From Candidatus Sumerlaeales bacterium (GTDB lineage Bacteria; Sumerlaeota; Sumerlaeia; Sumerlaeales; Sumerlaeaceae): a stretch of DNA of 64,000 nt. Position 1 is the stretch's first letter. Every line of letters begins with the position of its first letter. The position numbers and the translations under genes are program-made. The notes beneath the pieces are model-generated. The model was given only the letters and a program-made list of their open reading frames with translations, did not search any database and was not told the origin of the DNA. This document shows, piece by piece, positions 8,227-64,000 of the stretch. Location: NCBI GenBank assembly GCA_038243585.1, contig JBBSQY010000006.1:12840-76839 (forward strand), in the 5' to 3' direction.

Positions 8227-8231
8227 AGTTC

Positions 8232-10223
8232 TTATAAATTCCCCGAGCCAAAAAAGGTTAAAAGTAAGGCAATCAACGCCGCACCAAAAAGCATTACAGC
8301 AGCATAACGGCCTACGCGCCCATTTTGCAGGGTAACAAAGAAGCCGTGAAACAGCTGCAGTATTACTGAGCCTGCTTCATAAATACCATCGACTAAATAT
8401 TCGTCAGTCCAGGACAGCACTTTAGAAATTTTCCTGTAGGGCCGTGTAACAAGGGTGGCGTACAAATGGTCAAAATCCCATGCACGGTATAAAAAGTTGG
8501 CAACGCCAAATCTGTAGGGCGAGGCCGTTTCGATCCTAATCGCCATAGGATCCATAGCAGGTTCAGGAATTATGCGACCTTCAACCATTCGCTTTGGACT
8601 GAAGAGAACGCTACCTACGAACCATCCGGCAACGGCCAACACAGCACTGACGGCTGCTGCAATTATCTCGCCGGTTAAATTATGTGACGGCTCAGAAGCC
8701 CAACCTTTGAAGTGAGGCTGGAAATAGTGTTCCCAGTGAAGAAGACCCGGCACGTTTAGAAAACCGGCAAACAAAGCAAAGACTGCCAGAATATATAGAG
8801 GCCATGTTTGGCGGGGTGAAGGCGCGTGCAAGTGATAGTCTGCGCGAGGAGCTCCAAGAAATACGACATAAATTAGCCGAGCTGAATAGATTGCAGTAAG
8901 GACAGCTGTGGTCAAACCTACCCCGTACAGTAATATATTACCGCGATCTGAGGTAAGTGCTGACCATAATATAGCATCCTTGCTGAAAAAGCCTGAGGTT
9001 AAAGGAATGCCGGCAAGCGCAATGGTGCCCGCGACGGTTGCCAGAAAAACTCCAGGGAGCTCTTTACGCAGGCCACCCATTTTGAAGATATTCTGTTCGC
9101 CATGTAGCGCATGGATTACGCTCCCAGCCGCAAGGAAAAGAAGCGCTTTAAAGAACGCATGGGTAAAAAAATGAAAAAGCCCGATTGAAAAGGCCCCAAC
9201 TCCGAGAGCAAGCATCATGAACCCAATTTGGCTTATAGTAGAAAATGCCAGGATCCGTTTGATGTCGGTTTGCACGATGGCGCAGGTTGCACCGTAGAAC
9301 GCAGTCAGGACGCCGATTACAGCGACCACCATCATTAGCTCAGGCGACAGCGCGAACACGATGTGAAAGCGGGCAATTAAATAAACTCCGGCGGTTACCA
9401 TCGTTGCGGCATGTATGAGCGCACTAACAGGGGTTGGGCCAGCCATGGCGTCTGGAAGCCATGTTTGTAATGGAAGCTGTGCGCTTTTTCCCGCCGCTCC
9501 GCCTAGTAACAATAGACCCGCAATCACCAACAGTTGTCCAAAAGTCAAATTGAACACGGGATGTACGATATTAAGATCTGCTAAACCAAACGTTTCGAGC
9601 CGCGTAAAATCCACTGTTCCGATCATGGCAAGGAGAAGCACACCGAGGATCAAAAATACGTCACCGAAGCGTGTGACGAAGAACGCCTTTAACGCTGCAG
9701 CGACATTCTCACGTTTCTCGTAATGATGACCAATCAGGGCAAAGGAACAAGCACCAACTCCCTCCCAGCCGATTAACATAAAGAAGGCATTATCTGCCAA
9801 CACCAGAATGAGCATCGAGGCAACAAAGAGAGAAAGAAAGCCGAAGTAGCGTCTCTGGCCTTCTTCGTTTTCCATGTAGGACGTAGAAAACAGGTGGATC
9901 AAAAAGCCGACTCCAGTAATTACGAGGGCGAATATACCGCTAACTCGGTCAAGCAATAGCCCGGCATTAGCCTGCACGAATCCAGCATCCAGCCATTTCC
10001 AGCCAATCTGGTGAAAAAAAACTGCTCCCTTACTTGTTGCATTATTGTAAACAATAAATGAGAATATTGCCCACAAAAAACTCATGGCAACGCCAGTTGT
10101 GGCTATCCACCCTGCAGAACGTGGTCTGATGGAACCGGAGAAGATAAAAATTAATAGAGCAGCAAGAGCGGGTAATCCGGGAATTAACCAAAGCGACGGG
10201 TAAATGGAAGTCATCGTGTCCAT
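8232..10223 (-). CDS. nuoL: NADH-quinone oxidoreductase subunit L
   Basis: 663-aa antiporter-like subunit (GWEGVGACSF, KSAQLPLQTWLPDAMAGPTPVSALIHAATMVTAGVY) with the C-terminal lateral-helix region. Confidence 0.92.
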   Translation of the reverse strand: MDTMTSIYPSLWLIPGLPALAALLIFIFSGSIRPRSAGWIATTGVAMSFLWAIFSFIVYNNATSKGAVFFHQIGWKWLDAGFVQANAGLLLDRVSGIFALVITGVGFLIHLFSTSYMENEEGQRRYFGFLSLFVASMLILVLADNAFFMLIGWEGVGACSFALIGHHYEKRENVAAALKAFFVTRFGDVFLILGVLLLAMIGTVDFTRLETFGLADLNIVHPVFNLTFGQLLVIAGLLLLGGAAGKSAQLPLQTWLPDAMAGPTPVSALIHAATMVTAGVYLIARFHIVFALSPELMMVVAVIGVLTAFYGATCAIVQTDIKRILAFSTISQIGFMMLALGVGAFSIGLFHFFTHAFFKALLFLAAGSVIHALHGEQNIFKMGGLRKELPGVFLATVAGTIALAGIPLTSGFFSKDAILWSALTSDRGNILLYGVGLTTAVLTAIYSARLIYVVFLGAPRADYHLHAPSPRQTWPLYILAVFALFAGFLNVPGLLHWEHYFQPHFKGWASEPSHNLTGEIIAAAVSAVLAVAGWFVGSVLFSPKRMVEGRIIPEPAMDPMAIRIETASPYRFGVANFLYRAWDFDHLYATLVTRPYRKISKVLSWTDEYLVDGIYEAGSVILQLFHGFFVTLQNGRVGRYAAVMLFGAALIALLLTFFGSGNL

Positions 10224-10226
10224 GGG

Positions 10227-10532
10227 TTATTCTCCGGCTGCATCAGCAATGGACCAGAGATCCAGCGTTTGAAATTTGCGATAGATTAGGACGGCCAGGG
10301 CCAGGCCGATAGCGACTTCTGCCGCCGCAACGGGCAGGATAAACAAGAAAAATATTTGTCCGTCAGGTTCTCCGTGAAGTGCTGAACCTGCAACAAATGC
10401 AAGCCCTGCCGCATTGAGCATTACTTCCATGCTCATGAGAACAAACAGGAGGTTGCGGCGCACGATCACGCCTGTAACACCGATGAAAAATAATATAGTG
10501 GCAACAACGAGGGCAGGTTCAGCGAAGGGCAA
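10227..10532 (-). CDS. nuoK: NADH-quinone oxidoreductase subunit K
   Basis: 101-aa three-TM protein with the conserved MSMEVMLNAAGLAFV segment. Confidence 0.9.
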   Translation of the reverse strand: MPFAEPALVVATILFFIGVTGVIVRRNLLFVLMSMEVMLNAAGLAFVAGSALHGEPDGQIFFLFILPVAAAEVAIGLALAVLIYRKFQTLDLWSIADAAGE

Positions 10533-11067
10533 CTTTCACCTCCGTCTCGTCCTGAATTCCGGCTGCGCGTCCAAGATGCATACCACCGACAATTCCAATC
10601 AAGAGTATTAGCGATGCAAGCTCTACACCAAGATAATGGTGTGTAAACAAGGCGATTCCCAGTTCTCGCGCAGAAACCACGTTGGTGGCTTCAGTTCCAA
10701 CCATGCTGCCGGAACGGAGTAGTGCCAGCACAACCACAATTACCAGAATCGTGGAAAGCAGAGCTGGAAAAATAAGCTGAATCAAAGACGGCCTCTGAAT
10801 ATCCGGCATAGTGGCGGGGGATCCCGCTGGGCTAAGCATCTGAACCACAAAAAGAAACAGCACCATAATTGCCCCGGCATAGACAATCACCTCCAGGGCA
10901 GCCAGAAACGGCGCGCCCAGAGTGTAGAAAATCATGGAAACTCCAAACAGGGACAAAATTAGGTAAAGTACTGCGTAAAAAGGGTTTCGGCTAATAATAA
11001 CAATTAGTGTAGCTGCTATCGCAACAAAAGAGGATGCCCAGAATATGGATGCGTCTAGAAAGGTCAC
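10519..11067 (-). CDS. nuoJ: NADH-quinone oxidoreductase subunit J
   Basis: 182-aa hydrophobic protein between nuoI and nuoK, with a typical YAGAIMVLFLFVVQML block. Confidence 0.88.
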   Translation of the reverse strand: MTFLDASIFWASSFVAIAATLIVIISRNPFYAVLYLILSLFGVSMIFYTLGAPFLAALEVIVYAGAIMVLFLFVVQMLSPAGSPATMPDIQRPSLIQLIFPALLSTILVIVVVLALLRSGSMVGTEATNVVSARELGIALFTHHYLGVELASLILLIGIVGGMHLGRAAGIQDETEVKVALR

Positions 11068-11591
11068 GGCAGGTTGCTCCGATAGTTCGACGGGGGATTT
11101 TCTTCAATTCCTTCCCCTTTGCCTTTTCCTGCAATGGCTACACCAGCAACCTTCCAATAATTATAATCCGGATGTTTTCCAGTGCCGCTGATCTGCAGGT
11201 CCTCTTTGTGATAAAGAAGGTTGCTGCGCGTCGTCGTAGACATCTCAAAATCCGGTGTAAGTTGTATGGCGTATGTAGGACAAGCCTCTTCGCAAAACCC
11301 ACAAAAGATGCAACGGGCGAAATTAATATCAAACTTCTTAGCCACACGACGCCCGTCCGGTCGGTATTCTGACTGCAAATCAATGCAGTTTACCGGGCAC
11401 ACGGCTTGGCACAGGTAACACCCTACGCAACGTTCGTCACCGCTGGGGTCGCTTGTCAGCACAATACGACCACGCCACCGGGGCGGGATGATCGGCTTCT
11501 CTTCCGGGTAATTAATAGTAATCGGCTTCTTAAACAGATACTTCGCTGTCAGGGCAAGCCCGGCGAGCATTTCTTTCAAATCGTTAAGCAT
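11064..11591 (-). CDS. nuoI: NADH-quinone oxidoreductase subunit I (2x[4Fe-4S] ferredoxin)
   Basis: Two CxxCxxCxxxCP motifs (CVGCYLCQAVCP and CIFCGFCEEACP). Confidence 0.93.
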   Translation of the reverse strand: MLNDLKEMLAGLALTAKYLFKKPITINYPEEKPIIPPRWRGRIVLTSDPSGDERCVGCYLCQAVCPVNCIDLQSEYRPDGRRVAKKFDINFARCIFCGFCEEACPTYAIQLTPDFEMSTTTRSNLLYHKEDLQISGTGKHPDYNYWKVAGVAIAGKGKGEGIEENPPSNYRSNLP

Positions 11592-11600
11592 AATATTTAA

Positions 11601-12671
11601 TCATCTTCCTGCCATGCCGCCAATATCCGGAGCTACCAACACAATAATAATAGTGATAACTAGGTTTAATATCGAGAGGGGGATGAGGACTTTCCATCCA
11701 AGTTCCATAAGGTGATCAAATCGAAACCTGGGATAGGTTGCCCTGATCCAGATAAAAAAGAACAATAGCGCCACGACCTTTAGTACTAGCCATAGAGGTC
11801 CTAGCCAATCTGGACCGATTCCCTGCCAGCCACCAAGGTACAGAATTGCTATGATCGCACTTAGAAGTAAAACCCCAATGTATTCTCCCAGGAAGAAAAG
11901 CGCGAACTTCATACTGCTATACTCAGTGTGAAAGCCAGCTACGATTTCATTTTCCGCTTCCGGAAGATCAAATGGGGTGCGGCGTGATTCCGCAACAGCA
12001 GATATGAGGAAAATTAAAAACCCCAGTGGCTGCAACGCCAAAAACCAAAGCGGCTGTTGCGCTTTAACAATGTCATTGAGATTTAGAGAGCCAGCCAGTA
12101 TAACGACAGCTAAAAGGCTCATACTCAGGCTGAGCTCATAGCTGATCATCTGAGCAGTAGCCCTCAAACCGCCCAATAACGCGTACTTACTATTAGACGC
12201 CCAGCCAGCTAAAACGATACTATATACTGCAATTGAACTGAGCGCCAAAAACAAAAGGACCCCTATATTACTATTGGACAAAGAAAACCAATGGCTAATT
12301 TCAGGATTCCCAAAGGGGATAATCCCAAGCCCAAGCAAGCCCGTAATGGTAATAATCATGGGGGCTATAACAAACAGGACCTTATTTGCAAAAGGAGGCA
12401 TTGAGTCCTCTTTTGTAAGCAATTTCAAAACGTCTGCAATCGGATGCAGGTTAAGAAAAGGAACCTTGAACTTCCCGATATAAAGGCGAGCACGGTTCGG
12501 ACCGACTCTATGTTGTAGTCTTGCGATTACTCGGCGTTCAAACAGGACGATGTACCCGGTAATACCGAAGATAAACATCATGATAAACACGCCCTTTACA
12601 ACCGCTACAAGGGCTTGTTGCCACGTTTCCAATTGAATAAGGGATGTGTAGGTGAGCCATTCTAGGTTCAT
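11601..12671 (-). CDS. nuoH: NADH-quinone oxidoreductase subunit H
   Basis: 356-aa membrane subunit with the conserved ERRVIARLQHRVGPNR and AESRRTPFDLPEAENEIVAGFHTEYS blocks. Confidence 0.93.
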   Translation of the reverse strand: MNLEWLTYTSLIQLETWQQALVAVVKGVFIMMFIFGITGYIVLFERRVIARLQHRVGPNRARLYIGKFKVPFLNLHPIADVLKLLTKEDSMPPFANKVLFVIAPMIITITGLLGLGIIPFGNPEISHWFSLSNSNIGVLLFLALSSIAVYSIVLAGWASNSKYALLGGLRATAQMISYELSLSMSLLAVVILAGSLNLNDIVKAQQPLWFLALQPLGFLIFLISAVAESRRTPFDLPEAENEIVAGFHTEYSSMKFALFFLGEYIGVLLLSAIIAILYLGGWQGIGPDWLGPLWLVLKVVALLFFFIWIRATYPRFRFDHLMELGWKVLIPLSILNLVITIIIVLVAPDIGGMAGR

Positions 12672-47567: not shown

Positions 47568-50126
47568 ATGACTTATTTTTACCGTAGAACAGGCTTCATC
47601 CCAATGCTCGCACATCTGATCTTTAATATCTACTTGTCCTATTTCGGCGCCGCGCCAATCACATGCGCAGAACCCTTTAAATTAGACGCGCCCATTATCG
47701 CGGTACCCGTTGGGCTTACGACCACCCGTCAGCCCCGTATTGAGTGGCGGTCTGTCGCCAGTGACAGTTATCAGGTTCTCGTCACAGCAGAAGAGACGAC
47801 TGCCAGTCAAATCTTATGGGATTCCGGCATCGTCGAAAGCGATGACAAATGGACAACGGCCGTACCGCAACTGCCGGTCAATTCGACACTATACACCCAT
47901 GTTCGAGTAAAGACCAAACAGCGATGGACAAACTGGAGCCCCCGTAGCGTCCCGTTTCGTATTCAGCCAGTTCCCCAAGCAGCAGGGGATATAATTACCT
48001 ATGATCTAAGCTATTCCAGAAAGTTACCCGCACCCGAAGCCTTTGGCCATGCACATTTGGTTAGCGTTCTTCAGGGTATTGTCAATCGCGACCAGCCACA
48101 GCTATTTGTCAATTTCGTGAGAGCGAAACGCTTACCTGACGGGGTAGATAATTACTGGCTGAATCGTTTGCAAGAGCCTGAAGGATGGCTTGCAAAGAAA
48201 TCATTGGTACCGGAGGATGAAATTCTGGCGTTGGTGAACCGATTTCGATCTTCAATAGATGGAGTTGTGATTTGGGATCCCGAGGTTAACGCGACGTCCA
48301 ATATAGCTTCTACGGTAGCCGGCGCAGACAACTTGCTTCCAGTCAGATACGATCCCTCCCCAGGATCTTTTTATACTAGGCTTGTCACCAGCGGCCCACA
48401 ACTCCCTGTACGGCTTAATCTTGTGGGAAAGTTCACCGGCACAGGAACAATACCAGACACAGCCAGAGCCTCCAGTGGAAGCAGGAAATGCGACGCCTAC
48501 ATTTGGGCTGTTGAAAATTATCTGAAAACAAAACGCTCAAACCCGCAAAAACTGGGTTATTATCTCGATGCCTATTGGATAAGCGAGCCCGGTGGCGACG
48601 CTCAGCTTCATACGTTGACGAATCACGACTATTTTGTGGCTAACAAAGGGTTCTTCTGGGACTTGTCACCTTGGTCCGATGAGACCCCCGTGGACGATCC
48701 CGATCAGCCCCTTGGAGCCGACTTAAATACTTTAAAAGAAATATACGTTTCGTCTTACGAAGCAATGGCGGGTGCCAAATTTAGTCATACGGGTGGATTT
48801 ACGCCTTGGCATCTAAAATATACAAACTCTCACGGGGCGGGAGGCACCCATGGTGCTGTGGAAACCGAATGGGAAACCGCTCGGATATTATCCGCTTATA
48901 ACTCGTACCTCGATGCCGACGCCATCGGGATTTGCGCAATGGCCAATGCTTCCCTGTATCAGCACATGCCATTGCCCGAGCGATACTCCCAGCCTGTGCC
49001 ACCTATGCCAGAAGAGCTCCAGCGACAGGGGCTGTTAAGCCAGCGAAATTTGGTGACAACTGCGACATACATCCTGCATTATGTGGGAGACTATGACTCG
49101 GCGGCTTGGGCTACAAGCATGCTCCCAGGTTTTTGGGACGCTGGCGACAGAGGATCTGTAAATATGGGCTGGGCGATTAATCCTAATCTGAGCGAACGCG
49201 CTCCCATGTTTTTTGAATATGCCTACAGAACACGGACGGCACACGACCACTTCATGGCAGGGGATTCAGGAGCAGGGTACGTTAATCCCACTCAGTTGCT
49301 ATCGCCTCGCCGACCATCTGGTTTGCCTTCCGCCGTAGAGGCATGGCAGCATCATTGCCGGCAATTTTACCAGGCGTTCGGAATGAACTTTACCGGGTTT
49401 GTCATTAATGGCCTTTCTGGAGTCATTGGGCCGGAGGCGGAACGCATTCATACGGCTTTCTCTCCAAACGGCATTGTTATTCAGGAGGCGGTAAACCAGG
49501 GCGACGTTCACCTGGAAGGTACAATGCCGGTGTTTGTTCACAATTCTGATCTTAGTGTCAATGCGCCGGAGGCCGCGGATACGGTTCACTCTCTCGCGCA
49601 ACCAGACACCCTGCAATTCCTCATGTTCCGAAGCATCCTACGGCCTGTTTCGTATTATGCTACCCTGAACAACTTGCTGCGCAGTAGTCGTCCCGATTTG
49701 AATTATGTCTTCTGTAGCCCAGACGTTTTTTCATATTTAGCACGGGTACATTTAGGTTCAGACAATAACCAAATGGCCAGCTACCTTTTCGACACTATTC
49801 CCCAGGACATGCAGGCAGGAAACTCCTACCCGGTCCAGATAGCGATCCGGAACGATGGGTGGGACACATGGAAGGGCGGAAAAGGCGGAACTCACGGACT
49901 CCTGGTCGAAATTTCCGTAAACGATAAGTCTACATCACCCACCTTTTATCCCATGCCCCGCGACGTTCCACCCGGTGACTCGATCGTCATAAAAGTCGAA
50001 ATTACGGCATGCGACAGGGGTGGCTCGCAAACGATTAATTATGAAATGGCCAGTAACAACGGCGCGAATAAGTTTTCCAGCAGTGGTGACCCCGCTTTTG
50101 TGCAAAAGCTAAAGGTCGAAATATAA
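47568..50126 (+). CDS. Secreted GxGYxYP-family putative glycoside hydrolase with a C-terminal Ig/NBR1-like domain
   Basis: N-terminal hydrophobic signal and the family-naming motif region DSGAGYVNP. The C-terminal beta-sandwich-like segment is YPVQIAIRNDGWDTW. ATG 47568 is preferred over the ORF-track start at 47496. Confidence 0.5.
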   Translation: MTYFYRRTGFIPMLAHLIFNIYLSYFGAAPITCAEPFKLDAPIIAVPVGLTTTRQPRIEWRSVASDSYQVLVTAEETTASQILWDSGIVESDDKWTTAVPQLPVNSTLYTHVRVKTKQRWTNWSPRSVPFRIQPVPQAAGDIITYDLSYSRKLPAPEAFGHAHLVSVLQGIVNRDQPQLFVNFVRAKRLPDGVDNYWLNRLQEPEGWLAKKSLVPEDEILALVNRFRSSIDGVVIWDPEVNATSNIASTVAGADNLLPVRYDPSPGSFYTRLVTSGPQLPVRLNLVGKFTGTGTIPDTARASSGSRKCDAYIWAVENYLKTKRSNPQKLGYYLDAYWISEPGGDAQLHTLTNHDYFVANKGFFWDLSPWSDETPVDDPDQPLGADLNTLKEIYVSSYEAMAGAKFSHTGGFTPWHLKYTNSHGAGGTHGAVETEWETARILSAYNSYLDADAIGICAMANASLYQHMPLPERYSQPVPPMPEELQRQGLLSQRNLVTTATYILHYVGDYDSAAWATSMLPGFWDAGDRGSVNMGWAINPNLSERAPMFFEYAYRTRTAHDHFMAGDSGAGYVNPTQLLSPRRPSGLPSAVEAWQHHCRQFYQAFGMNFTGFVINGLSGVIGPEAERIHTAFSPNGIVIQEAVNQGDVHLEGTMPVFVHNSDLSVNAPEAADTVHSLAQPDTLQFLMFRSILRPVSYYATLNNLLRSSRPDLNYVFCSPDVFSYLARVHLGSDNNQMASYLFDTIPQDMQAGNSYPVQIAIRNDGWDTWKGGKGGTHGLLVEISVNDKSTSPTFYPMPRDVPPGDSIVIKVEITACDRGGSQTINYEMASNNGANKFSSSGDPAFVQKLKVEI

Positions 50127-50199
50127 TGATATAATTCTGTAAACCTCAGCCTATAATCGCACTGTCATCTAACACAGAAACATAAGCCAGCCTACAGCT

Positions 50200-51552
50200 C
50201 TAATTGGTGGAAGGTCCCGGGGGAGCGGTGCGTAATATGGTCCAACCTGCAATACCCGCAATGAGCGACCCTGCTAATATTCCAATTTTCGAAATCTCAA
50301 GCAGCTGAGATTCCCCGAAAGCCAGATTCGCGACAAAAAGACTCATTGTGAACCCGATTCCGCCTAGAAACGCAACGCCAATCACATGGCGCCAGGTTAC
50401 TCCTACAGGCATAGACGCAAGGTTTAACCTGATAGCCAACCATGAAAATAGGCTAACACCAATAAGTTTACCCACCACCAAACCGACTATAATTCCAAGA
50501 CTCACCGAACTTCCAAGCGCGGCAACTCCGCCGCCCGCCAGACTAACTCCCGCGTTTGCAAAAGCAAAAATAGGCAGAACCGTAAAAGTAACCCACGGAT
50601 GGAGCTCATCTTCTAGCCGACTCAGCGGTGTCTGCACACCTTCTGTAAGATCCTGCAAGGAATTTAACACACCATGACGGTCACTGTTAAGCCCCCGCTC
50701 TATATCCAGTGGTCCTGCTTCCTCAAACCCGTTAAGTAGCTGGCGCCCATTTTCCAGAAACTGCGCCTCGGCGATTCGCGTGCGAGCCGGAATTGCCATA
50801 GCCAGTAAGACCCCCGCAACAGTGGCGTGAACTCCTGACTTAAGGATGGCTATCCACAGAACCGCGCCGACCAAGCCATAAACGACCGGCCTGCGTACTC
50901 CCATGGTATTTAACGCAATGGCCGCCGCAAGCATGATACCAGACACCAGAAGAGCCCCAAGGGACACTTTCGCAGTGTAAAAAATCGCAATTACCAGTAC
51001 GGCCCCGATATCGTCGACAATGGCAAACGCCGTAAGAAATATTTTTAACGACAACGGCGCACGCTTTCCAAGCAGTTGCAAAACACCAAGGGAAAAGGCT
51101 ATATCCGTAGCCATGGGAATTCCCCAACCGTGGCTTCCGTCTCCACCGACGTTAAACACAGCATATAACCCCGCCGGCACCACCATGCCTCCAATCGCAG
51201 CTGCAATGGGAAGTGTGGCCTTTCGCACGGAGGTAAGCTCACCGATCAAAATTTCCCGCTTAATTTCAAGGCCCACAACGAAAAAGAAAATTGCCATAAG
51301 CCCGTCATTGATCCACAGTAACAACGGTTTGGATAGCTCATAGGGTCCAATACCTATTGTTAATTTGGACTGCCAGGTATTAAAATAAACTGAGGACCAG
51401 GGGGAGTTCGCCCATAGTAGGGCCAGAACTGTACAACCAAAGAGAATTATACCGCCTGAAGTCTGGCGATGTAGGAACTCCTGAAACGGGCTTAAAATAC
51501 GGTCAATTGGAGCCCTTGGTCCAATTTTGACATGAGATTTCTTACTGGCCAC
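50200..51552 (-). CDS. nhaA: Na+/H+ antiporter NhaA
   Basis: Hallmark blocks FFFVVGLEIKRE, GIPMATDIAFSLGV and FLTAFAIVDDIGAVLVIA. Confidence 0.93.
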   Translation of the reverse strand: MASKKSHVKIGPRAPIDRILSPFQEFLHRQTSGGIILFGCTVLALLWANSPWSSVYFNTWQSKLTIGIGPYELSKPLLLWINDGLMAIFFFVVGLEIKREILIGELTSVRKATLPIAAAIGGMVVPAGLYAVFNVGGDGSHGWGIPMATDIAFSLGVLQLLGKRAPLSLKIFLTAFAIVDDIGAVLVIAIFYTAKVSLGALLVSGIMLAAAIALNTMGVRRPVVYGLVGAVLWIAILKSGVHATVAGVLLAMAIPARTRIAEAQFLENGRQLLNGFEEAGPLDIERGLNSDRHGVLNSLQDLTEGVQTPLSRLEDELHPWVTFTVLPIFAFANAGVSLAGGGVAALGSSVSLGIIVGLVVGKLIGVSLFSWLAIRLNLASMPVGVTWRHVIGVAFLGGIGFTMSLFVANLAFGESQLLEISKIGILAGSLIAGIAGWTILRTAPPGPSTN

Positions 51553-51663
51553 GAGTAACCTTTCAGTAATACCTTAATAAGAGATCTCTTCGGATTAAGA
51601 CGCGGAACAAAATACCGTTACACCGCCAAATGCCGGAGACACCTAACTGCCAAAACCATATAA

Positions 51664-51740
<77 letters not shown>

Positions 51741-51828
51741 ATGCAGTCTAAGTTTTGATGCCTACATTAGCTGGTTTTAGGTGTTCAATAAAAACTGGCG
51801 ACCTTGGATTCCCGTTAGCAGCATGAAC

Positions 51829-52413
51829 CTATTTTATGTCCACCAACTCTATTTCAAACACAAGATCGGAGTTCGGAGGCACATTTCCCTGACCTTTATC
51901 ACCATACCCCAGATTCGACGGCACATATAGTTTTCTGACTTCGCCAACATTCATGTCGTTTGTGCCGACCTCCATGCCTTTGATTGCTTGGGATTCACCA
52001 GGCTTGAACGAAAACGGAATCGGAAATTCCGCTTCACGTGAGCTCTCCAGCTTTTGACCATCGGTCAAATACAGCGTGTAATGGATTTGACGGGTGCCTG
52101 TGGTAGTTGCTAAGGGCCCGGCTCCAGCTTTAATTATCTGGTAGTAGATTCCGCCTGGTAATGTTAAAGAAGTAGGACTATCGGCGGAAGATGTCGCAGA
52201 TGCAGTAATAATGCTATGGCTGCTTATACTCACAGTGCTCTGCGTCGTGTGGGTATCGACCTCTTGGGATGCGGTCGTCTCTTCCCCGGCTACTAGCGTT
52301 GTTGTAAGCGCATCACTCGAAGATGTCACGAAGTCTTGTGCCCACGAGACCGTAGAGCAGCAGATGTGAACCAGTACTGCAACGATTACGAGAGTGGCGT
52401 TATTGTGCGACAT
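51829..52413 (-). CDS. Secreted FKBP-type peptidyl-prolyl cis-trans isomerase
   Basis: Signal peptide, a Ser/Thr-rich linker and a C-terminal FKBP domain (HYTLYLTDGQKLESS...PGESQAIKGMEVG...LVFEIELVDI). Confidence 0.85.
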   Translation of the reverse strand: MSHNNATLVIVAVLVHICCSTVSWAQDFVTSSSDALTTTLVAGEETTASQEVDTHTTQSTVSISSHSIITASATSSADSPTSLTLPGGIYYQIIKAGAGPLATTTGTRQIHYTLYLTDGQKLESSREAEFPIPFSFKPGESQAIKGMEVGTNDMNVGEVRKLYVPSNLGYGDKGQGNVPPNSDLVFEIELVDIK

Positions 52414-55750: not shown

Positions 55751-56038
55751 TTACCAGTAGTAGTAACTTCCGTACTGTCCACCGCCGTTATAGCTATAGC
55801 CCAGGCCATAATACGATCCGTCTCCATGGTACGTTTCAGGAAAATAGCTGCTATTGTATGACCAATAGGGGTCATAGCGAACCCCTGTCGAATAATGGTA
55901 CGGATAACCATAATAATGGCGTACCCCGTAGGCTTGGCGAAGCTGTTCATACTGAGGGCTGAAGTATTGAGCGGACGCGGCCCCGGCAAAGCTGGACAGA
56001 ACTAACAGTACGACGATGCGGCAAGAAGTTGTGGCCAT
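55751..56038 (-). CDS. Small secreted Tyr/Gly-rich low-complexity protein
   Basis: Signal peptide MATTSCRIVVLLVLSSFAGAASA/Q, then a ~72-aa mature region with about 21 Tyr (YYGYPYHY, GSYYGLGYSYNGGGQYGSYYYW). I chose it over the overlapping same-strand ORF 55723-55989, which lacks a signal peptide. Confidence 0.5.
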   Translation of the reverse strand: MATTSCRIVVLLVLSSFAGAASAQYFSPQYEQLRQAYGVRHYYGYPYHYSTGVRYDPYWSYNSSYFPETYHGDGSYYGLGYSYNGGGQYGSYYYW

Positions 56039-56082: not shown

Positions 56083-57639
56083 CTACTTCTGGCTACGCAT
56101 TCTTCGGGCCAGATTACTCACAAACGGATTGTATTGGTCATTAGCGGCCTGCGTTTCTTGACTTGCGACCGCCTGACCTGCCACCCGAACCGAAGTGCCA
56201 ATAAGAGGTCGTGCCTCAGCGTTAACTTCAGTTTCCAGAAGCGATTCTCCAAGAAAGCTAACAGCGGTAGTTGGTGATAGTCCTTTCGCGTTTTGAACAA
56301 GAACCAGTTCAGCCCTTGATATTTCTTCAATCGCCTTAAGGCTGACGGTGGCCAGTTTGCCAGATCCGCGGACTTGCGAATTGGAAGCGGAGACTTCATA
56401 AACAATAATACCTTTAGTATTATCCGCGAAATTAAAGCGGTAATAGTCAAAAGTAAAATTGTTCCTCGCCATCGCATCGCGGATATTTATACCGCGGGTT
56501 ACAACGTTTCCTGCATCGCTGTCCACAACCTGCAGAATAGTAGGATCAAACTGCAAATAAAGGCGGACGCGATCAAGGCGTTTTTCACCCGGGTTTTTTA
56601 GAAAAATATCCACATCAAATGATTCTCCAGCTCGTACCGAAGTCGAAGACGGACGCAGATCAAAAGTCACATCAAGTCCAGGCCGATCGTCGCCAGCCGA
56701 CGCAGTCGGAGACCCGATCAGTACGCCATCATCCAGTCGAGTTAAAGTAGGTTTAGTTCGCGGTCCTATGACTTGGACCATAGATTTTATTACCCCATCA
56801 GATGACCCGGGCATGGTGCCCAGCAAGTTGACGTCGTTTAAAAAAAGGCCTGTGGTATGACGATTTTCGCCAAATTCATAAGAAATTACTGCTCCGTCCG
56901 TCTGCTCCAACGCTTCCCAAACTATCGAGATCAGTTCCTTTTGAGCGAATTGTCGCGGCTCTTTCAGGGCCGCACGGACATAAATTGTTCCTTCATCCGG
57001 GTTGAACTCATAATCAATTTTGTTTTTAACATAAGGGTCGAGGGCTGAGTGATCCAACGCCAGGGGATTCAGAATATGACGAGGGTACTTAATAAGCAGA
57101 GAAACCTCATCGATTTCCCCCTCTTTTGTTTCCGCATGAATTTCCGTATTAAATCGCTCCCCAACCGATACAATGCTGTCCATTGGATGGAACAACAAGA
57201 TCGTCCGTGATTCGCTGCGGGCAGATTGTGGCGACTGAGCCGCGGGCGTTGCATCTGCCGCCTGAATGGGTGGAGTCATACGCGCGTTTTGGACAGGCCC
57301 TGTCGGAAGAGGCTGGCCGGGAACTCCCGCGACCGGAGCTGCTCCTTGTGGGTTGACGGCACCCGGCGCTCCGGGTGGCGCGCCGGGAACTACAGCCGCG
57401 GGTGCGCCTGGAGCCGCCGGTGGCTCGGTTCCCTGTTTCGCCTGCAACGCCTTCTGCTGCTCGTCCCGTCTGGCTTTACTCTCTTCGAGTATTTTTTTAA
57501 TTCGTTCCTGATGTTCCCTAATCCGTTCTTGCCGTGTTTGCTCACCACCAGGTTGTTGCGCCATAGCGCTAATCGGCTGAAAAACAAACACTAAGCTGGC
57601 AAGCATACCCCATATCACTCGCGTCGAGAACATAATCAT
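56083..57639 (-). CDS. Secreted protein: charged coiled-coil + Pro/Ala-rich linker + two cohesin-like beta domains (tentative)
   Basis: The start is set at ATG 57639 (MIMFSTRVIWGMLASLVFVFQPISAMAQ signal peptide). The longer ORF from 57807 would overlap the upstream methyltransferase gene. The domain assignment is by pattern only. Confidence 0.5.
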   Translation of the reverse strand: MIMFSTRVIWGMLASLVFVFQPISAMAQQPGGEQTRQERIREHQERIKKILEESKARRDEQQKALQAKQGTEPPAAPGAPAAVVPGAPPGAPGAVNPQGAAPVAGVPGQPLPTGPVQNARMTPPIQAADATPAAQSPQSARSESRTILLFHPMDSIVSVGERFNTEIHAETKEGEIDEVSLLIKYPRHILNPLALDHSALDPYVKNKIDYEFNPDEGTIYVRAALKEPRQFAQKELISIVWEALEQTDGAVISYEFGENRHTTGLFLNDVNLLGTMPGSSDGVIKSMVQVIGPRTKPTLTRLDDGVLIGSPTASAGDDRPGLDVTFDLRPSSTSVRAGESFDVDIFLKNPGEKRLDRVRLYLQFDPTILQVVDSDAGNVVTRGINIRDAMARNNFTFDYYRFNFADNTKGIIVYEVSASNSQVRGSGKLATVSLKAIEEISRAELVLVQNAKGLSPTTAVSFLGESLLETEVNAEARPLIGTSVRVAGQAVASQETQAANDQYNPFVSNLARRMRSQK

Positions 57640-57694
57640 TGTCCTTCCCCATCCAATACAATGCCCAATCCTGATATTAATAATATGACTGATC

Positions 57695-58294
57695 TCAACG
57701 ATTGTTTGCCAGTAAGCGATCAAAAATAATCGCGGCGGCTGCTCTGACGGATAAATGGTTAAAATCACCAGTCCCAGTAATTGGCTCCAGCACGAAATCC
57801 GCCTCAAGCATCATCTCGGGGTGAAGACCCCACCCTGTGCCAAAAAGGAGCACTATTGGCCCACCTTCATCGGCCATTATTTCTCTTAATTGTTTAAAAG
57901 TGACAGTATTGGCGTATGTGCGGGCCGATGTCACAATAAACTGGGGCTCCTGATCGCATTCGGCCAATACGTGGTCACTCATTTTCCCAACGTCGGTAAA
58001 ACATTGCGTGATACTGAGGGCATCTTTGCGATTAGAATTATACTTGGATCCCCAACCGCTTTCCCAATGCTCCAGAATTTTGGATACGAGCCAATGTTGG
58101 GCCTCCACCGGCGTAATAAGAAAATATCCATCCAGACCGTAGGTGCGGGCACTCCTGCTTATATCGTGAATGTCCAGGTTGGTAACCGATGTCGATACCA
58201 GCATGCCCTGTTTGTCAATCACAGGGTAATGAAGAAGTGCTGCGTAAATTTTGCGTGGCATGGGAGGAATTGAAATCATGCATTTTTGCACCAT
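57695..58294 (-). CDS. Predicted SAM-dependent RNA methyltransferase (SPOUT-like, Methyltrn_RNA_4-type)
   Basis: The block LLHYPVIDKQGMLVSTSVTNLDIHDISRSARTYGLDGYFLITP and the C-terminal LLFGTGWGL match my recollection of this family. Alternative ATG at 58279. Confidence 0.5.
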   Translation of the reverse strand: MVQKCMISIPPMPRKIYAALLHYPVIDKQGMLVSTSVTNLDIHDISRSARTYGLDGYFLITPVEAQHWLVSKILEHWESGWGSKYNSNRKDALSITQCFTDVGKMSDHVLAECDQEPQFIVTSARTYANTVTFKQLREIMADEGGPIVLLFGTGWGLHPEMMLEADFVLEPITGTGDFNHLSVRAAAAIIFDRLLANNR

Positions 58295-58471: not shown

Positions 58472-60262
58472 ATGGGTTATAACCCGGAAAACCCTCTGAT
58501 TGTACAATCAGATATGTCGGTTCTATTGGAAACAATGGGCCCACATTACGAAGATGCACGCGCATTCATCAACCAGTTTGCGGAGTTGACGAAAAGTCCC
58601 GAGTATCTGCACACCTATACGATCACGCCGCTCTCCATTTGGAATGCCGCGTCTGCGGGAATTACATTGGAGGTGATTTCGGCTGGACTTGAAAAGTTCG
58701 CGAAGTACGATTTGCCGGGCAATGTTTTTACCGAGATTCGTGAGCTGCTGGGCCGTTTCGGCAGCATTCAGCTTTTAAAAAATTCAGAAACCGGGCAGCT
58801 CTACCTTAAATGCCGAGATTTGCCGGTAGCCGAAGAAGTCCTTGCCGCGCCCGCCGTCCGGGAGCATTTGGAGAAGCGTGTATCGGACTTGGAAATTCTG
58901 GTTAGTCCCGATGCCCGCGGCCGTCTTAAACATGCCCTTATTAAGCAGGGCTATCCAGTTGAAGACCTTGCTGGGTTTATTGAAGGAGATGCTCTGGAAG
59001 TTGATTTCAGAGATGTTACACTTAAAGGTCGAAAGCTTAAGATTCGGGGCTATCAACAGGAAGCCGCAGAGATGTTCTATTGCGGCGGGCGCGCCACCGG
59101 CGGCAGCGGTGTGTTAGTGCTGCCATGCGGCGCAGGGAAAACCGTCATTGGCATTGCCGCAATGACCCTGGTGAAGCAAAAAACCCTCATCCTGACAACA
59201 AACGTAACAGCCCTCCGCCAATGGATGAACGAAATCATAGACAAAACGACAATCGAAGCTAAGAACGTCGGGGAATATAGTGGCGAAAATAAAAACATCC
59301 GGGACGTCACAGTCTCTACCTATCAGATTCTAACTTATAGAGACCGTAAAACAGATCGTTTTCCTCACATGGACCTTTTTGGAGCGCACAACTGGGGCCT
59401 AATTGTCTATGACGAAGTGCATATGTTGCCTGCTCCCGTATTTCGTGCAGTCGCGGATATACAGGCGAAAAGACGACTTGGCCTAACTGCCACCTTGGTG
59501 CGCGAAGATGGCAAAGAAGACGAAGTTTTTTCCCTGATCGGCCCCAAGCGCTACGACAAGCCCTGGAAAGAACTAGAGAGCCAGGGCTGGATTGCGGAAG
59601 CTATATGTACGGAAATTCGGGTCCCCATGGATAACGATTTGAAATTGCAATACGCGGTTGCGGACCTTCGGGCAAAATATCGCCTAAGCATGGAAAACCC
59701 TGCAAAACTTACCGTAGTCCAGCAACTCCTGGATCGGCACAAAGGTGATCGCGTGCTTGTAATTGGGCAATATCTGGGGCAATTGGCCGCGATACAGGAA
59801 ATGATTAAAGCGCCAATAATCACAGGTCAGACACCGAACAATGAGCGGGACGAGATCTACGGCAAGTTTAAAACCGGAGAAATCCAAGTTCTGATTGTCT
59901 CAAAAGTAGCCAATTTCGCCATTGATTTGCCCGATGCTAACGTAGCGATCCAGGTATCCGGCACATATCGTTCAAGGCAGGAAGAGACACAGCGGCTGGG
60001 ACGGGTGCTACGCCCAAAAGCCGATGGCAGCAGCGCATGGTTCTATTCTGTGGTAACAAAAGACAGCAAAGATCAGGAGTGTGCGAAAAAACGATCCATG
60101 TTTCTCACAGAGCAGGGGTATAGGTACTGTATTCAGGTACTTAACGATGAAGACATTAACATCACTCCTGTTATTGACGTTGATCTTGATTCAAAGGAAG
60201 CTCTGCATCGAGCAGCTGAAACAACAACTGAGTCGACTCTAGTAACAATAACCGAAACGTAA
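58472..60262 (+). CDS. xpb: XPB/Ssl2/ERCC3-type SF2 DNA helicase/translocase
   Basis: N-terminal XPB-type domain (PLIVQSDMSVLLE...), Walker A LPCGAGKT, DEVH box, and motif III followed by the RED motif (TATLVREDGKE). Helicase C lobe with QRLGRVLR. Confidence 0.9.
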   Translation: MGYNPENPLIVQSDMSVLLETMGPHYEDARAFINQFAELTKSPEYLHTYTITPLSIWNAASAGITLEVISAGLEKFAKYDLPGNVFTEIRELLGRFGSIQLLKNSETGQLYLKCRDLPVAEEVLAAPAVREHLEKRVSDLEILVSPDARGRLKHALIKQGYPVEDLAGFIEGDALEVDFRDVTLKGRKLKIRGYQQEAAEMFYCGGRATGGSGVLVLPCGAGKTVIGIAAMTLVKQKTLILTTNVTALRQWMNEIIDKTTIEAKNVGEYSGENKNIRDVTVSTYQILTYRDRKTDRFPHMDLFGAHNWGLIVYDEVHMLPAPVFRAVADIQAKRRLGLTATLVREDGKEDEVFSLIGPKRYDKPWKELESQGWIAEAICTEIRVPMDNDLKLQYAVADLRAKYRLSMENPAKLTVVQQLLDRHKGDRVLVIGQYLGQLAAIQEMIKAPIITGQTPNNERDEIYGKFKTGEIQVLIVSKVANFAIDLPDANVAIQVSGTYRSRQEETQRLGRVLRPKADGSSAWFYSVVTKDSKDQECAKKRSMFLTEQGYRYCIQVLNDEDINITPVIDVDLDSKEALHRAAETTTESTLVTITET

Positions 60263-60268
60263 AGACGA

Positions 60269-63052
60269 ATGCAGACAGACAGATACGCCCTTTCCGAATC
60301 CTTAAAGCTTCGCGCCTTGCTTCGCCAGCTGCCAGACGAACAACTATCCCGTATAAGCAGAAACTGGGGATTCCGGGAAAGTGACAAAAGTGGTAGCGCG
60401 GAAAAGATTTCCGGGGAGCATTTGGCCGATTTCCTGTATCCCCGCATGAACTCCGAAACTTACTTTCAGCAGATATGGGAACGGTTAAGTGAAGAAGAGC
60501 GAGACGCACTTAAGTTTTTAGGGATTCATGGCGGAGTATTGGCCAGAGAAGAACTGAACCAGCGCGTATTTAAAGGGGCGGTGCGAACTTTTCGCAAAGC
60601 TTCAGACAGTCTCATAGACAAAGGCCTCGTTTATGAAGCTACCGAGCTTCCAGGGATGAGTCGCTCTAGCGAACAGTGGTTTTTTGTTCCAGAAGTTTTT
60701 CTTACATTTTTACAGCTGCCAATACATTGTCAGGGGTTTTTAGGCAATTTGCTGCGTCTGCTAGGGACGGAGGAACTGTCAGCACTTGCGAAGCGGGTGT
60801 TGAAGCTGGAAGATCACCAGTTGCCCTCGCCATTAGAGCTACGGTACAACGTCAGAAAGTTTCTGATAGAGCCAGATAATTTAAGAAACACTGTTGAAGA
60901 GCTGCCCGAAACGGAAAGAGAAGTTTTCGAAGCGTTGCTCGGCCGAAAAGGCCAATGTCTTTACCGGGAGCTGCTTGACGCGACAGGCGCTAGAAAAGTG
61001 GACCATAGCAAAGCCGAGTTCATCAACCAGTTGGCTCAAACAACGGGACTAGTGTTTACTGTCTCTGAAGGCCATAACAAATACATGAACTCGCTAATGG
61101 TTCCGCGGGATCTATATTACGTTATTACCCGACGCTATCAGCCAGACACTCGGTCCCTCCAACGCATCGAATCCATGGCAGGCATCCGGCGGGAGGCTCC
61201 GAAGCTGCCACCCTCGGACAACTCCGCAGACATACTCCGAGACATGGCTGTTTTTGCTGCTACAATGGATATGTTTCAGCCAAAAAAACTTACAACCGGC
61301 GGTATCAACAAGGCTGATTTAAAAAAGATGGCCACGATCTTTCCTTTAAGTAAGCAGGCGAGATATTCTACTTTTTTGTCCACATATCTAATCAACTCTG
61401 ATAGCTTTGTAGATATTCAAGGGGCCTGGCGGGCATCGGAAAAGCTGCCGGCTCAACTTAGTAGTCCCGAGCAGACGTTCCTTTTTCTTTTTCAGTGGTG
61501 GTTGAAAACAACCACTTGGAATGAGTTTTTTATCGATGGGGTTGCGCCAGCAGGTGATCGGCCTCCGCAGCTATGGACAAACGTTGTTGAACTGCGCCAG
61601 GTAATTCTGAGCGCTTTGCATCAAGTTCAAAAAGACAGATGGGTCAGCTACTCCAATTTTTGGGAAACAGTTGTCCCTCTTCTGGATTCGCGACTTCCCA
61701 AAGGCAGCGGCGGCGGTGGCTACGGTGGAATTCTCTCCGTAAAAGACGCGGTCGGCGTTATTATACGGGAATCCCTGTTTTTTCTGGGAGTCACAGTCAT
61801 CGCCAATACGAACCCTGACGATGATGCGGCTGCCAAATCACGCTCCGTTGTAAAGGCAAAGGGTAAAGAGCCGGTAAACGAGCCGCCCGCGGATTTTCAA
61901 TTCAAGCTTTCCCCTATGGGTCGCAAGCTTGCTGGGTCTGATGCAATTAATCTCACTTTCAATATCGAAAGTGAAGACAATCCCGTAGTCGGAAGTTTTC
62001 AGCAAGGAGCACAATGGATCATCGTACAACCAAACCTCGAAATTGTGGCGCCGCGTGATCTGGGTTTAGACTCGGTTTTCCAACTCGCGCGTTTATGTAA
62101 GGTAAAGAACATCGATGTAATGACCACCCTAGAACTGAGTCGGGAAAGCTTGCGACCTGTTCTCGATCGCGGCGCTGATACTGAAAGCATTTTGCAATTT
62201 CTGACCGGCTTGAGCAGAATGGAAATGCCTCCAGGCATCGCACAATTAATAGAAGATTGCAGCAACAAGCACGGAGAAATCAGACTCGGCAGCAGCAGTG
62301 GGTATATTATTGCGGAAAACAATACCGTTCTGGAATCGATATGGCGACATCCCAAGCTTACGCCGTTTATTAAAGAAAGATATGGCGACAATGTCCTGTT
62401 GCTGGCAAGCGAAACAGACCTCAACAAAGTGGCAAAGGAGCTCCGCAGCCATGGTCACAGTCCGCAAATGGAAACCGGCGCAGTTCACGCAAACCATGAC
62501 AATCGCTTCCATCTGGCTCTAACGGAAATAGAAATGCAGGACGTCATAGCTGCCGTTCGCTTTCTATCCTACGTGGAAAAAGTTCTTGAGGCAGATCTTA
62601 CAGACGGGCGTGCCGCAACCATGGCCCACCGGCTACAGCCTGATTCAACCGGCTTTCTAGTAAGTGGGACTGGAGTTGAAACTCGGTCCCGTCAGTTATT
62701 CCGGCGTTTCGAAGCGGCATTTAACAAACACGACGAGGACATTGTCGAAAAATATAAAACTCAGGTTTCTAAACTCGTATCCCGATCTACAACATCCCGG
62801 GGGCCTAGTAAATATCAGTATAAGGGATCAAATCCCGCGGTTGATAAGGAAGACATTGAGCAGCTTATCGTTTTTGCGCAAGAGTATGAGCTGGAAGTTG
62901 AACTGCTCTATCTGAAGCAAAGCGAACAGGAAACTCGCGTAGTAGTCTTGCCCCGGGGTGTCGAAGGGGAGCGCATCTACGCCCATAACAGCGTGACCGA
63001 CACTGATGCGGTTTACTCCCTTAACAGGATTTTGCGCGCCAGGCTCCTGTAA
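60269..63052 (+). CDS. XPB-associated 927-aa protein: repeated winged-helix-like modules + XPB-N-terminal-like domain + small C-terminal beta-rich domain; function unknown
   Basis: It starts 6 nt after the xpb stop. Internal repeat: LSEEERDALKFLGIHGGVLAREEL versus LPETEREVFEALLGRKGQCLYRELL. Residues ~583-732 align by eye with XPB residues ~8-163. I recognised no catalytic motif. Confidence 0.7.
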   Translation: MQTDRYALSESLKLRALLRQLPDEQLSRISRNWGFRESDKSGSAEKISGEHLADFLYPRMNSETYFQQIWERLSEEERDALKFLGIHGGVLAREELNQRVFKGAVRTFRKASDSLIDKGLVYEATELPGMSRSSEQWFFVPEVFLTFLQLPIHCQGFLGNLLRLLGTEELSALAKRVLKLEDHQLPSPLELRYNVRKFLIEPDNLRNTVEELPETEREVFEALLGRKGQCLYRELLDATGARKVDHSKAEFINQLAQTTGLVFTVSEGHNKYMNSLMVPRDLYYVITRRYQPDTRSLQRIESMAGIRREAPKLPPSDNSADILRDMAVFAATMDMFQPKKLTTGGINKADLKKMATIFPLSKQARYSTFLSTYLINSDSFVDIQGAWRASEKLPAQLSSPEQTFLFLFQWWLKTTTWNEFFIDGVAPAGDRPPQLWTNVVELRQVILSALHQVQKDRWVSYSNFWETVVPLLDSRLPKGSGGGGYGGILSVKDAVGVIIRESLFFLGVTVIANTNPDDDAAAKSRSVVKAKGKEPVNEPPADFQFKLSPMGRKLAGSDAINLTFNIESEDNPVVGSFQQGAQWIIVQPNLEIVAPRDLGLDSVFQLARLCKVKNIDVMTTLELSRESLRPVLDRGADTESILQFLTGLSRMEMPPGIAQLIEDCSNKHGEIRLGSSSGYIIAENNTVLESIWRHPKLTPFIKERYGDNVLLLASETDLNKVAKELRSHGHSPQMETGAVHANHDNRFHLALTEIEMQDVIAAVRFLSYVEKVLEADLTDGRAATMAHRLQPDSTGFLVSGTGVETRSRQLFRRFEAAFNKHDEDIVEKYKTQVSKLVSRSTTSRGPSKYQYKGSNPAVDKEDIEQLIVFAQEYELEVELLYLKQSEQETRVVVLPRGVEGERIYAHNSVTDTDAVYSLNRILRARLL

Positions 63053-63066
63053 GGAGGAGGTGACAA

Positions 63067-64000
63067 GTGAAGTCGTATGGCAATAAATTCGTCGAACTGC
63101 TGGACCGTACCTCGCTTATAAAGACAGTCTCTAAAGGGTCGGGTGTTCTAGTAGGTGTATCCGGCGGAGCAGATTCTGTCGCATTGCTTATGGGAATGTG
63201 TGCGATCAAGCCCGCCATCGGTATCACCCTGACCGCAGTCCATATAAACCACGGGCTACGATCGGAGGCAGCAGCAGAAGAATTCTTTGTTCAGTCCCTT
63301 TGCGATCGGTTGTGTGTGGACTGCCGCATTGTGAAACTGACCGGAAAAGAAAAGCCCGGAAAGTGCAGTCCCGAACAATTCTGGAGGCAGTCCCGCTATT
63401 CTGAATTTGAGGAAATTCTTGCCGATACAGAAAGCGATTTTCTAGCCCTTGGCCATACCATCGATGACCTTGCCGAAACATTTTTATATCACCTGACTAG
63501 AGGAACAGGAGTTGATGGTCTTGTCTTCCATTTTTTTAAAATGGCAGGCGCTCTTCCAATCATTCGACCTCTCTGGCAAACCAGCAGGAGTCGCATAGAG
63601 ACAGCCTTAACCGGCGCCGGTGAGCAATGGACCACAGACACTTCAAATCAAGACGTGAGATATAGTCGGAATCTCATCAGGCACAATGTTATCTCAGAAT
63701 TAAAAAAGATAAATCCCTCAGTCGTGGATGCAATTGCACGATTATCAGCGAATTTGCACGATTCGATTTCGAACCTCCCAGATCAGGACAGTCCCGATGA
63801 TTCCCTCACTGAAAATCCTCGATACTTCTCAGCCTTAAATGACGATAAAGTTTTGAAACTAACCGGCACTGCTTCAAACGGCGCTAATATCTCAGCACTA
63901 ATTCGCAATTTCGTATTTGCCGCGGCTACAACAATAATGGACAGTCGCCAGACGGCCCAGGCCACAAGAATTATCGCCTCTCGGGGAACAGGTTTAGTTG
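63067..64000 (+). CDS. tilS: tRNA(Ile)-lysidine synthase, N-terminal part (3' end lies outside the window)
   Basis: A GTG at 63067 follows AGGAGGAGG, and the frame is open to the window end. PP-loop GVSGGADS, HINHGLR, GHTIDDLAET and D.SN.D..Y.RN.IR blocks. It is absent from the ORF track because there is no stop in the window. Confidence 0.88.
   Translation, partial: MKSYGNKFVELLDRTSLIKTVSKGSGVLVGVSGGADSVALLMGMCAIKPAIGITLTAVHINHGLRSEAAAEEFFVQSLCDRLCVDCRIVKLTGKEKPGKCSPEQFWRQSRYSEFEEILADTESDFLALGHTIDDLAETFLYHLTRGTGVDGLVFHFFKMAGALPIIRPLWQTSRSRIETALTGAGEQWTTDTSNQDVRYSRNLIRHNVISELKKINPSVVDAIARLSANLHDSISNLPDQDSPDDSLTENPRYFSALNDDKVLKLTGTASNGANISALIRNFVFAAATTIMDSRQTAQATRIIASRGTGLV

Follow-up and report, generated by a model that had tools for sequence, protein, structure and literature searches.

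A protein encoded next to the XPB helicase in Candidatus Sumerlaeota carries a paralog of the XPB N-terminal domain that is homologous to the TFIIH p52 clutch

Results

The XPB gene and its partner gene

This study concerns two adjacent genes in Candidatus Sumerlaeota, the bacterial lineage formerly called BRC1. The DNA analysed is a stretch of 64,000 nucleotides (nt) from a Candidatus Sumerlaeales bacterium (assembly GCA_038243585.1, contig JBBSQY010000006.1, positions 12,840 to 76,839 of the forward strand), which is referred to as the window and is numbered from its first letter. An XPB helicase gene occupies window positions 58472-60262 on the forward strand and encodes 596 amino acids (aa). 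Directly behind it, on the same strand at positions 60269-63052, lies a gene for a protein of 927 aa, hereafter called the partner. The start of the partner gene is only 6 nt past the XPB stop codon, and this spacing suggests that the two genes form a two-gene operon.

Judged from its sequence, the upstream gene is a bona fide XPB helicase. The translation matches the NCBIfam equivalog model NF045503 (repair_heli_XPB) with 824.3 bits over model positions 1-547, the cut-off being 610. The Pfam domains Helicase_C_3, ResIII and ERCC3_RAD25_C are present, and the helicase motifs Walker A (GAGKT), DEVH and RED are all intact. The N-terminal domain is encoded at positions 58478-58954 on the forward strand (residues about 3-161), with the Pfam match to PF13625 at residues 9-136.

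Four parts can be told apart in the partner, all on the forward strand. The N-terminal region (60269-61993, residues 1-575) is predicted by AlphaFold as an array of winged-helix-like helical domains. It is followed by a copy of the XPB N-terminal or p52-clutch domain (62015-62464, residues 583-732), which is identified by PF13625, hhalign and Foldseek. A helical linker (62516-62788, residues about 750-840) is seen in the AlphaFold secondary structure, and a WYL-like beta domain closes the protein (62846-63049, residues about 860-927) on the basis of Pfam WYL matches of relatives, Foldseek and profile comparison. Scans of the partner against Pfam and NCBIfam gave matches solely to PF13625 and to the XPB model, and none to a nuclease or Bax1 family.

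A copy of the XPB N-terminal domain in the partner

The original prediction, made from the DNA letters and their translations, had proposed that the partner carries its own copy of the XPB N-terminal domain. The coordinates and peptides given for it are exact: partner residues 583-732 correspond to nt 62015-62464, and XPB residues 8-163 to nt 58493-58960. One Pfam model, PF13625 (Helicase_C_3), for which the gathering score is 34.2 bits, recognizes the two segments. XPB residues 9-136 score 100.6 bits and partner residues 584-701 score 66.7 bits (E 2.6e-18), and both segments align from profile position 1. Positions 33-164 of the NCBIfam XPB model likewise align with partner residues 612-740. 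The identity between the two domain copies is 18%.

The relationship was quantified by profile-profile alignment, with hhalign profiles made of 38 XPB and 37 partner sequences from related loci. XPB residues 30-162 aligned with partner residues 603-731 with a probability of 98.6%, an E-value of 8e-16 and a score of 99.6. One hundred column shuffles gave a mean score of 13.8 with a standard deviation of 2.6 and a maximum of 21.2, and a reversed control gave 12.6. The observed score is therefore about 30 standard deviations over the shuffled controls. When a cross-phylum partner profile of 98 sequences (profile A3) was used, the probability rose to 99.6% and the E-value fell to 9.4e-25 over 150 columns, pairing XPB residues 3-161 with partner residues 578-730. 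With this profile the collinear range of the original prediction was recovered whole, including the IVQ strand. Among the landmarks that had been pointed out, IVQ, G.I.L and L...G align exactly, but the T of G..TE and the K of K..L...G are one column off. A sliding-window hhalign scan along the partner found the domain only once.

The structural comparison agrees with the profile comparison. An AlphaFold2 model of the whole partner was built from a 19-sequence alignment, with a mean predicted local distance difference test score (pLDDT) of 77.5, and was compared with the PDB by Foldseek. The model matches solved XPB N-terminal domains, so that the folds of the two segments are not different. 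Human and yeast XPB chains aligned over 161-165 columns with a root-mean-square deviation (rmsd) of 3.9-4.7 Å, 16-17% identity and E-values of 4e-5 to 3e-4, the top human example being 8ebu_A with 164 columns, 3.9 Å, 17% and 4e-5. A separate AlphaFold model of partner residues 1-575 (pLDDT 79.7) gave no XPB match in Foldseek. Since the XPB matches vanish without residues 576-927, they stem from the C-terminal part that bears the domain. At the level of the profile, partner residues of about 618-671 align to human XPB 117-170, which is within the p52-binding N-terminal domain. These results establish an ancient paralogy between partner residues 583-732 and the XPB N-terminal domain.

Homology to the p52 clutch domain

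In TFIIH, residues 306-399 of p52, known as the clutch, share the fold of the XPB N-terminal domain (Greber et al. 2019). The beta-sheets of the two domains meet in a pseudo-symmetric dimer, by which XPB is recruited into TFIIH (Greber et al. 2019). The XPB ATPase has p52/p8 as its master regulator (PMC7708078).

The best Foldseek matches of the full partner model are p52/Tfb2 chains, with E-values of 7e-8 for 8ebu_D, 5e-7 for 7zs9_2 (yeast) and 1.7e-6 for 6nmi_D; the p52/p8 crystal structure 6trs matches at 5e-5. Searches with sequence profiles lead to the same proteins. The best PDB sequence match of the cross-phylum partner profile A3 is Tfb2 of C. thermophilum at E 7.1e-9, and further matches are yeast Tfb2 (1e-7), human XPB (3.6e-7) and human p52 (4e-4). 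Aligned with hhalign against 59 fungal Tfb2 proteins, profile A3 gave a probability of 95.9% and an E-value of 5e-9, pairing partner residues 372-650 with Tfb2 residues 79-296. The clutch region of the partner alone against the C-terminal part of fungal Tfb2 gave 96.2% and 2.7e-9. In addition, precomputed PF13625 matches are present on many eukaryotic p52 proteins. Partner residues 583-732 are homologous to the clutch domain of TFIIH p52/Tfb2.

With a profile of the bacterial XPB N-terminal domain, the E-values were 1.8e-20 for human XPB (residues 72-196) and 1e-19 for yeast Rad25 (residues 129-251), and p52 was not matched at E<=10. Because eukaryotic XPB is matched strongly by the bacterial XPB profile and p52 is not matched at E<=10, the shared domain seems to exist as two old lineages, with the bacterial partner either nearer to p52 or equally far from both. 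The asymmetry of the matches is only a crude hint in this respect.

One entry came up in the Tfb2 searches that deserves a separate remark. The NCBI 'hypothetical protein' P0187, labelled as Candidatus Bathyarchaeota archaeon, shares 67% identity with the C. thermophilum Tfb2 query fragment and contains Tfb2 and Tfb2_C domains. It is probably a fungal contamination of an archaeal bin of metagenome-assembled sequences.

Distribution of the partner family and linkage to XPB

PF13625 was found in all 21 of the close homologs of the partner, in all 19 relatives scanned with Pfam and in each of the 62 sequences of the cross-phylum Pfam scan. An exhaustive profile search returned 3,399 cluster representatives at E<=1e-3, a number that drops to 1,093 at E<=1e-10; the weakest matches may include XPB proteins themselves. 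The NCBI name of an actinobacterial member (P0022) is 'helicase-associated domain-containing protein'. Bacterial proteins with PF13625 Helicase_C_3 are typically about 650-860 aa in length. The Sumerlaeota partners stand at the long end, being extended at the C-terminus by about 190 aa. In Cytophagia, Chloroflexota and Bacillota, the partners have a length of about 620-726 aa and end shortly after the clutch-like domain.

XPB lies directly upstream of the partner in about 38 Sumerlaeota loci with sufficient flank, the gap between the genes being anything between -4 nt and a few hundred nt. Beyond Sumerlaeota, the two genes are adjacent in one Cytophagia genome, in one Chloroflexota genome, where the order is reversed, and in two Bacillota genomes. 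XPB and the partner are thus a conserved and tightly spaced gene pair. The pair is vertically conserved across the phylum and sits among housekeeping genes such as those for an RNA methyltransferase and an aminotransferase. In a JGI metagenome contig (L053:1-7175), a UvrA-like gene, XPB and the partner follow one another in this order on the same strand with overlapping gene ends. The UvrA-like gene is very large and internally duplicated, with a product of at least 1,983 aa. This locus links the XPB-partner pair to excision repair. The M. tuberculosis protein Rv0862c, whose gene adjoins ercc3/Rv0861c, is a putative member of the partner family; the papers found that name Rv0862c are silent on this context.

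Regions of the partner outside the clutch-like domain

In the N-terminal region, the profile of the partner gives weak MarR-type matches. The last winged-helix-like domain ahead of the clutch domain contains, at residues 508-540 (window 61790-61888), a GSGGGGYGG loop and behind it a charged stretch. The loop is kept in close relatives. The charged stretch is predicted to be disordered, with pLDDT <50 at residues 514-540 of the AlphaFold model.

Behind the clutch-like domain, AlphaFold predicts long linker helices (residues 753-773 and 802-839), followed by a small beta domain (about 860-927). The helical linker is absent in the shorter partners of other phyla (about 620-726 aa). In the Foldseek search, the partner model matches DriD, BrxR, PafBC and CapW, and the profile of the partner family matches the WYL domain of PafBC at E 3e-7. 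Among orthologs at 29-33% identity, P0020 matches Pfam WYL (PF13280) with 25.1 bits, above the gathering score of 21.8, and the others score 15.9-21.2; the E-values across P0017-P0021 range from 1.7e-5 to 0.013. In the cross-phylum set, a WYL match was found in 16 of the 62 members. Because all 62 have PF13625 and the shorter partners end soon after the clutch-like domain, the WYL-like module is an optional addition to the partner.

The WYL-like region of the partner also matches the C-terminus of PDB entries 8bnv and 8bns, which are annotated as 'AAA family ATPase', at E 0.018 with profile A1 and 4e-6 with profile A3. Presumably these AAA ATPases carry a WYL-type domain as well.

Surroundings of the gene pair in the window

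The genes 5' of XPB are on the opposite strand and unrelated to the pair. They encode an S-adenosylmethionine-dependent RNA methyltransferase and a cohesin-domain protein. The latter (window 56083-57807, reverse strand, 574 aa) combines one cohesin domain with a long low-complexity stretch rich in Pro, Ala and Gly. An open reading frame of 95 aa at window 55751-56038 on the reverse strand has a hydrophobic N-terminus and a Tyr/Gly-rich body (...YYGYPYHYSTG...GGGQYGSYYYW), and gave no match in Pfam. On the 3' side of the partner gene, the remaining part of the window (63053-64000, about 950 nt) has no open reading frame of at least 90 aa, where a gene leaving the window end would go unlisted, and no Rfam match at the gathering score. 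Nor were Rfam matches found for RNA elements around the XPB-partner pair, and promoter- or terminator-like sites around it are not more frequent than in shuffled sequences. Elsewhere in the window, the AT skew is strongly positive (+0.15 to +0.22) at positions 6001-12000 and 50001-52000 compared with the remaining window.

Discussion

A probable p52-like subunit for bacterial XPB

What, then, might a protein encoded next to XPB do with its own copy of the XPB N-terminal domain? The original prediction regarded paralogous domains in adjacent genes as a signature of hetero-dimerising partners, with the XPB N-terminal domain and the p52 clutch as its example. The paralogy is real and the analogy fits, as the hhalign match between the clutch regions demonstrates, but adjacent paralogous domains alone are no evidence of dimerisation. 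By analogy with TFIIH, we consider that the partner is probably a dedicated p52-like accessory subunit of bacterial XPB, which would dock on the XPB N-terminal domain. We infer a heterodimer in which the XPB and partner domains would pair sheet-to-sheet in a pseudo-symmetric manner and tether XPB to the partner, as in TFIIH. The partner scaffold may then modulate the ATPase or translocase of XPB in the way p52/p8 does. The N-terminal winged-helix array could provide contacts to DNA or protein. The C-terminal WYL-like domain, where present, might serve as a sensor of single-stranded nucleic acid, like the WYL domains of DriD and PafBC. The combined outcome would be that XPB is directed to, or activated at, damaged or unwound DNA. 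As for the history of the pair, it is quite possibly the prokaryotic counterpart of the XPB-p52 module of TFIIH, in which case the duplication and the pairing would predate eukaryotes and the two-gene cassette would have been inherited or acquired together.

Several observations weigh against the p52-like accessory subunit and set limits to the homology claimed. The full partner model aligns with p52 by Foldseek over about 590 columns at E 7e-8, but the TM-score of 0.25 and the rmsd of 24 Å led us to reject homology over the full length. With the model of residues 1-575 alone, Foldseek returns nothing at E<=1e-3. What it returns are weak matches to multi-winged-helix proteins, with p52 at 4.5e-2, below Pol III C82/RPC3 (1.5e-2) and TFIIIC. 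Because p52 falls to 4.5e-2 without residues 576-927, homology is claimed for the clutch domain only. The alignment of partner residues 1-575 with the pre-clutch part of Tfb2 by hhalign gave a score of 26.0, an E-value of 0.0086 and a probability of 4.7%. This score exceeds all of 60 shuffles (13.5±2.1, maximum 21.8), and the match rests on one winged-helix segment with a common '...WL...' helix. The same segment gives a weak, collinear second match to positions of about 63-130 of a hidden Markov model of fungal Tfb2 in several family members, with a best domain E-value of 0.0029 in a small local database. The p52 homology outside the clutch domain is therefore marginal. Membership in the Pfam family Tfb2 (PF03849) was also rejected. 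The relatives reach at most 21.4 bits against a gathering score of 34.5, with matches confined to profile positions 280-358 and mostly to 322-357, and the window partner has no match to this model at E<=1. The p8-like domain Tfb2_C (PF18307) was found neither in the partner nor in the 19 relatives nor in the 62 cross-phylum members. Because the evidence beyond the clutch domain is marginal, we keep the partner out of the Tfb2 family and describe it as having a homologous clutch domain within a similar overall layout. As to the proposed sensor, the window partner gave no match to Pfam WYL at E<=1. Finally, no XPB gene is found within about 6 kb of the partner at three loci (L007, L042 and L047) and on a Pseudonocardiaceae contig (L052), and at another locus (L023:2900-6001) two unrelated genes sit between XPB and the partner. 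Universal synteny of XPB and partner is ruled out by these five loci.

Alternative explanations

To the list of contrary results belongs a BLASTP comparison of the XPB segment with the partner segment, which gave E 0.61 and an alignment other than the collinear one. Taken by itself, it would suit the view that the resemblance of the two segments is a matter of chance or composition. With 18% identity and a non-significant BLASTP result, the similarity can not be established from two single sequences and profiles are needed. The profile-profile score lies far above the shuffles, both segments exceed the threshold of one Pfam model, and the predicted fold agrees with that of the solved XPB N-terminal domain, all of which leave chance resemblance a negligible probability. 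A more serious alternative starts from the C-terminal region, which resembles WYL regulators in both fold and profile. Taken together with the weak MarR-type and winged-helix matches of the N-terminal region and with the family members that have no adjoining XPB gene, this would fit a DNA-damage-responsive transcription regulator of the PafBC, DriD, BrxR or CapW type. Such a regulator, built of winged-helix and WYL domains, would act on xpb or on other genes, and its shared domain would be a separate module that binds nucleic acid or a ligand. We hold this to be unlikely, as the WYL domain occurs in only a minority of the cross-phylum members whereas the clutch-like domain occurs in all of them, and the top structural and sequence matches are p52/Tfb2 rather than regulators. 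With its 927 aa and a multi-domain array that runs collinear to that of p52, the partner is also unlike the regulators of about 300 aa with a winged helix-turn-helix-WYL-WCX (wHTH-WYL-WCX) arrangement. In addition, genes 6 nt apart and in a fixed order suggest two subunits made in matched amounts.

Other explanations accept the shared domain for what it is and assign it a different task. A domain that forms a pseudo-symmetric heterodimer could form homodimers too, and p52/p8 also restrains the speed of XPB in TFIIH. Both points would suit a domain that associates with itself in each protein, or a partner that inhibits the helicase by occupying the XPB N-terminal domain as a decoy, in place of an activating p52-like heterodimer. 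This is rather improbable in our judgement, because two old and distinct lineages, at 18% identity and with an XPB profile that misses p52, better fit a specialised hetero-pair. Less probable still is an anti-phage defence module composed of a helicase and a WYL-bearing sensor. It could draw on the frequent occurrence of WYL domains in defence regulators such as BrxR and CapW and on the generic PbeA matches of XPB in PADLOC. Those matches, however, are limited to the helicase core, and XPB satisfies the XPB equivalog model of NCBI. A defence-system identity for the partner was rejected as it has no PADLOC match at all. The vertical conservation of the pair across the phylum among housekeeping genes, and the one locus that joins it to a UvrA-like gene, also speak against defence.

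Comparison with known systems

The proposed p52-like accessory subunit is most readily compared with the XPB-p52 (Ssl2-Tfb2) pair of TFIIH. In both cases, a helicase and a non-catalytic partner each have a copy of the same alpha/beta domain, with the strand motif IVQ.. in bacterial XPB and partner and IVETN.. in Tfb2. A winged-helix array is predicted N-terminal to the clutch-like domain in the bacterial partner, as it stands in p52. There are also differences. The partner has 927 aa compared with about 460 aa for p52, and in place of a Tfb2_C/p8-like end it has, in this lineage, the helical linker and the WYL-like domain. The other TFIIH subunits are not encoded near the bacterial XPB-partner pair.

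Archaea offer another example of a prokaryotic XPB with a dedicated partner, namely Bax1 (PMC13024598). Bax1 is an XPG-related nuclease that binds the ThM and HD2 regions of XPB (PMC13024598). The bacterial partner, in contrast, has no nuclease family match, and its homologous domain suggests that it would dock on the N-terminal domain of XPB. Most archaeal XPBs do not have this N-terminal domain (PMC3353954).

The C-terminal beta domain of the partner is like the WYL sensors PafBC, DriD, BrxR and CapW by fold and profile. The structure of the DriD WYL domain has been solved with single-stranded DNA bound, according to the description of entry 8tp8. The known sensors are wHTH-WYL-WCX transcription factors of about 300 aa, whereas the WYL-like domain of the partner is placed on a p52-like scaffold and is missing in most family members.

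Significance

Pfam and NCBI annotation already contain the domain match, so its detection is not new. The novelty lies in the interpretation, namely the link to p52. We found no description of the bacterial partner, of its function or of its relation to p52 in the literature covered, from which most subscription journals were absent, so that a prior description is possible. The published statement on this point is that bacteria have no p52 homolog. If the reading as an inherited or acquired two-gene cassette is true, it would overturn that statement. The bacterial XPB, whose function is not understood, would then gain a regulatory subunit with a WYL-type nucleic-acid sensor. The WYL-like domain and the one UvrA-linked locus point towards a helicase that would be controlled by single-stranded DNA or by DNA damage. 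A widespread, gene-linked partner of the clutch type also offers a testable two-protein model of how XPB is tethered and regulated without the eight other subunits of TFIIH, and it suggests an origin for the XPB-p52 core of TFIIH.

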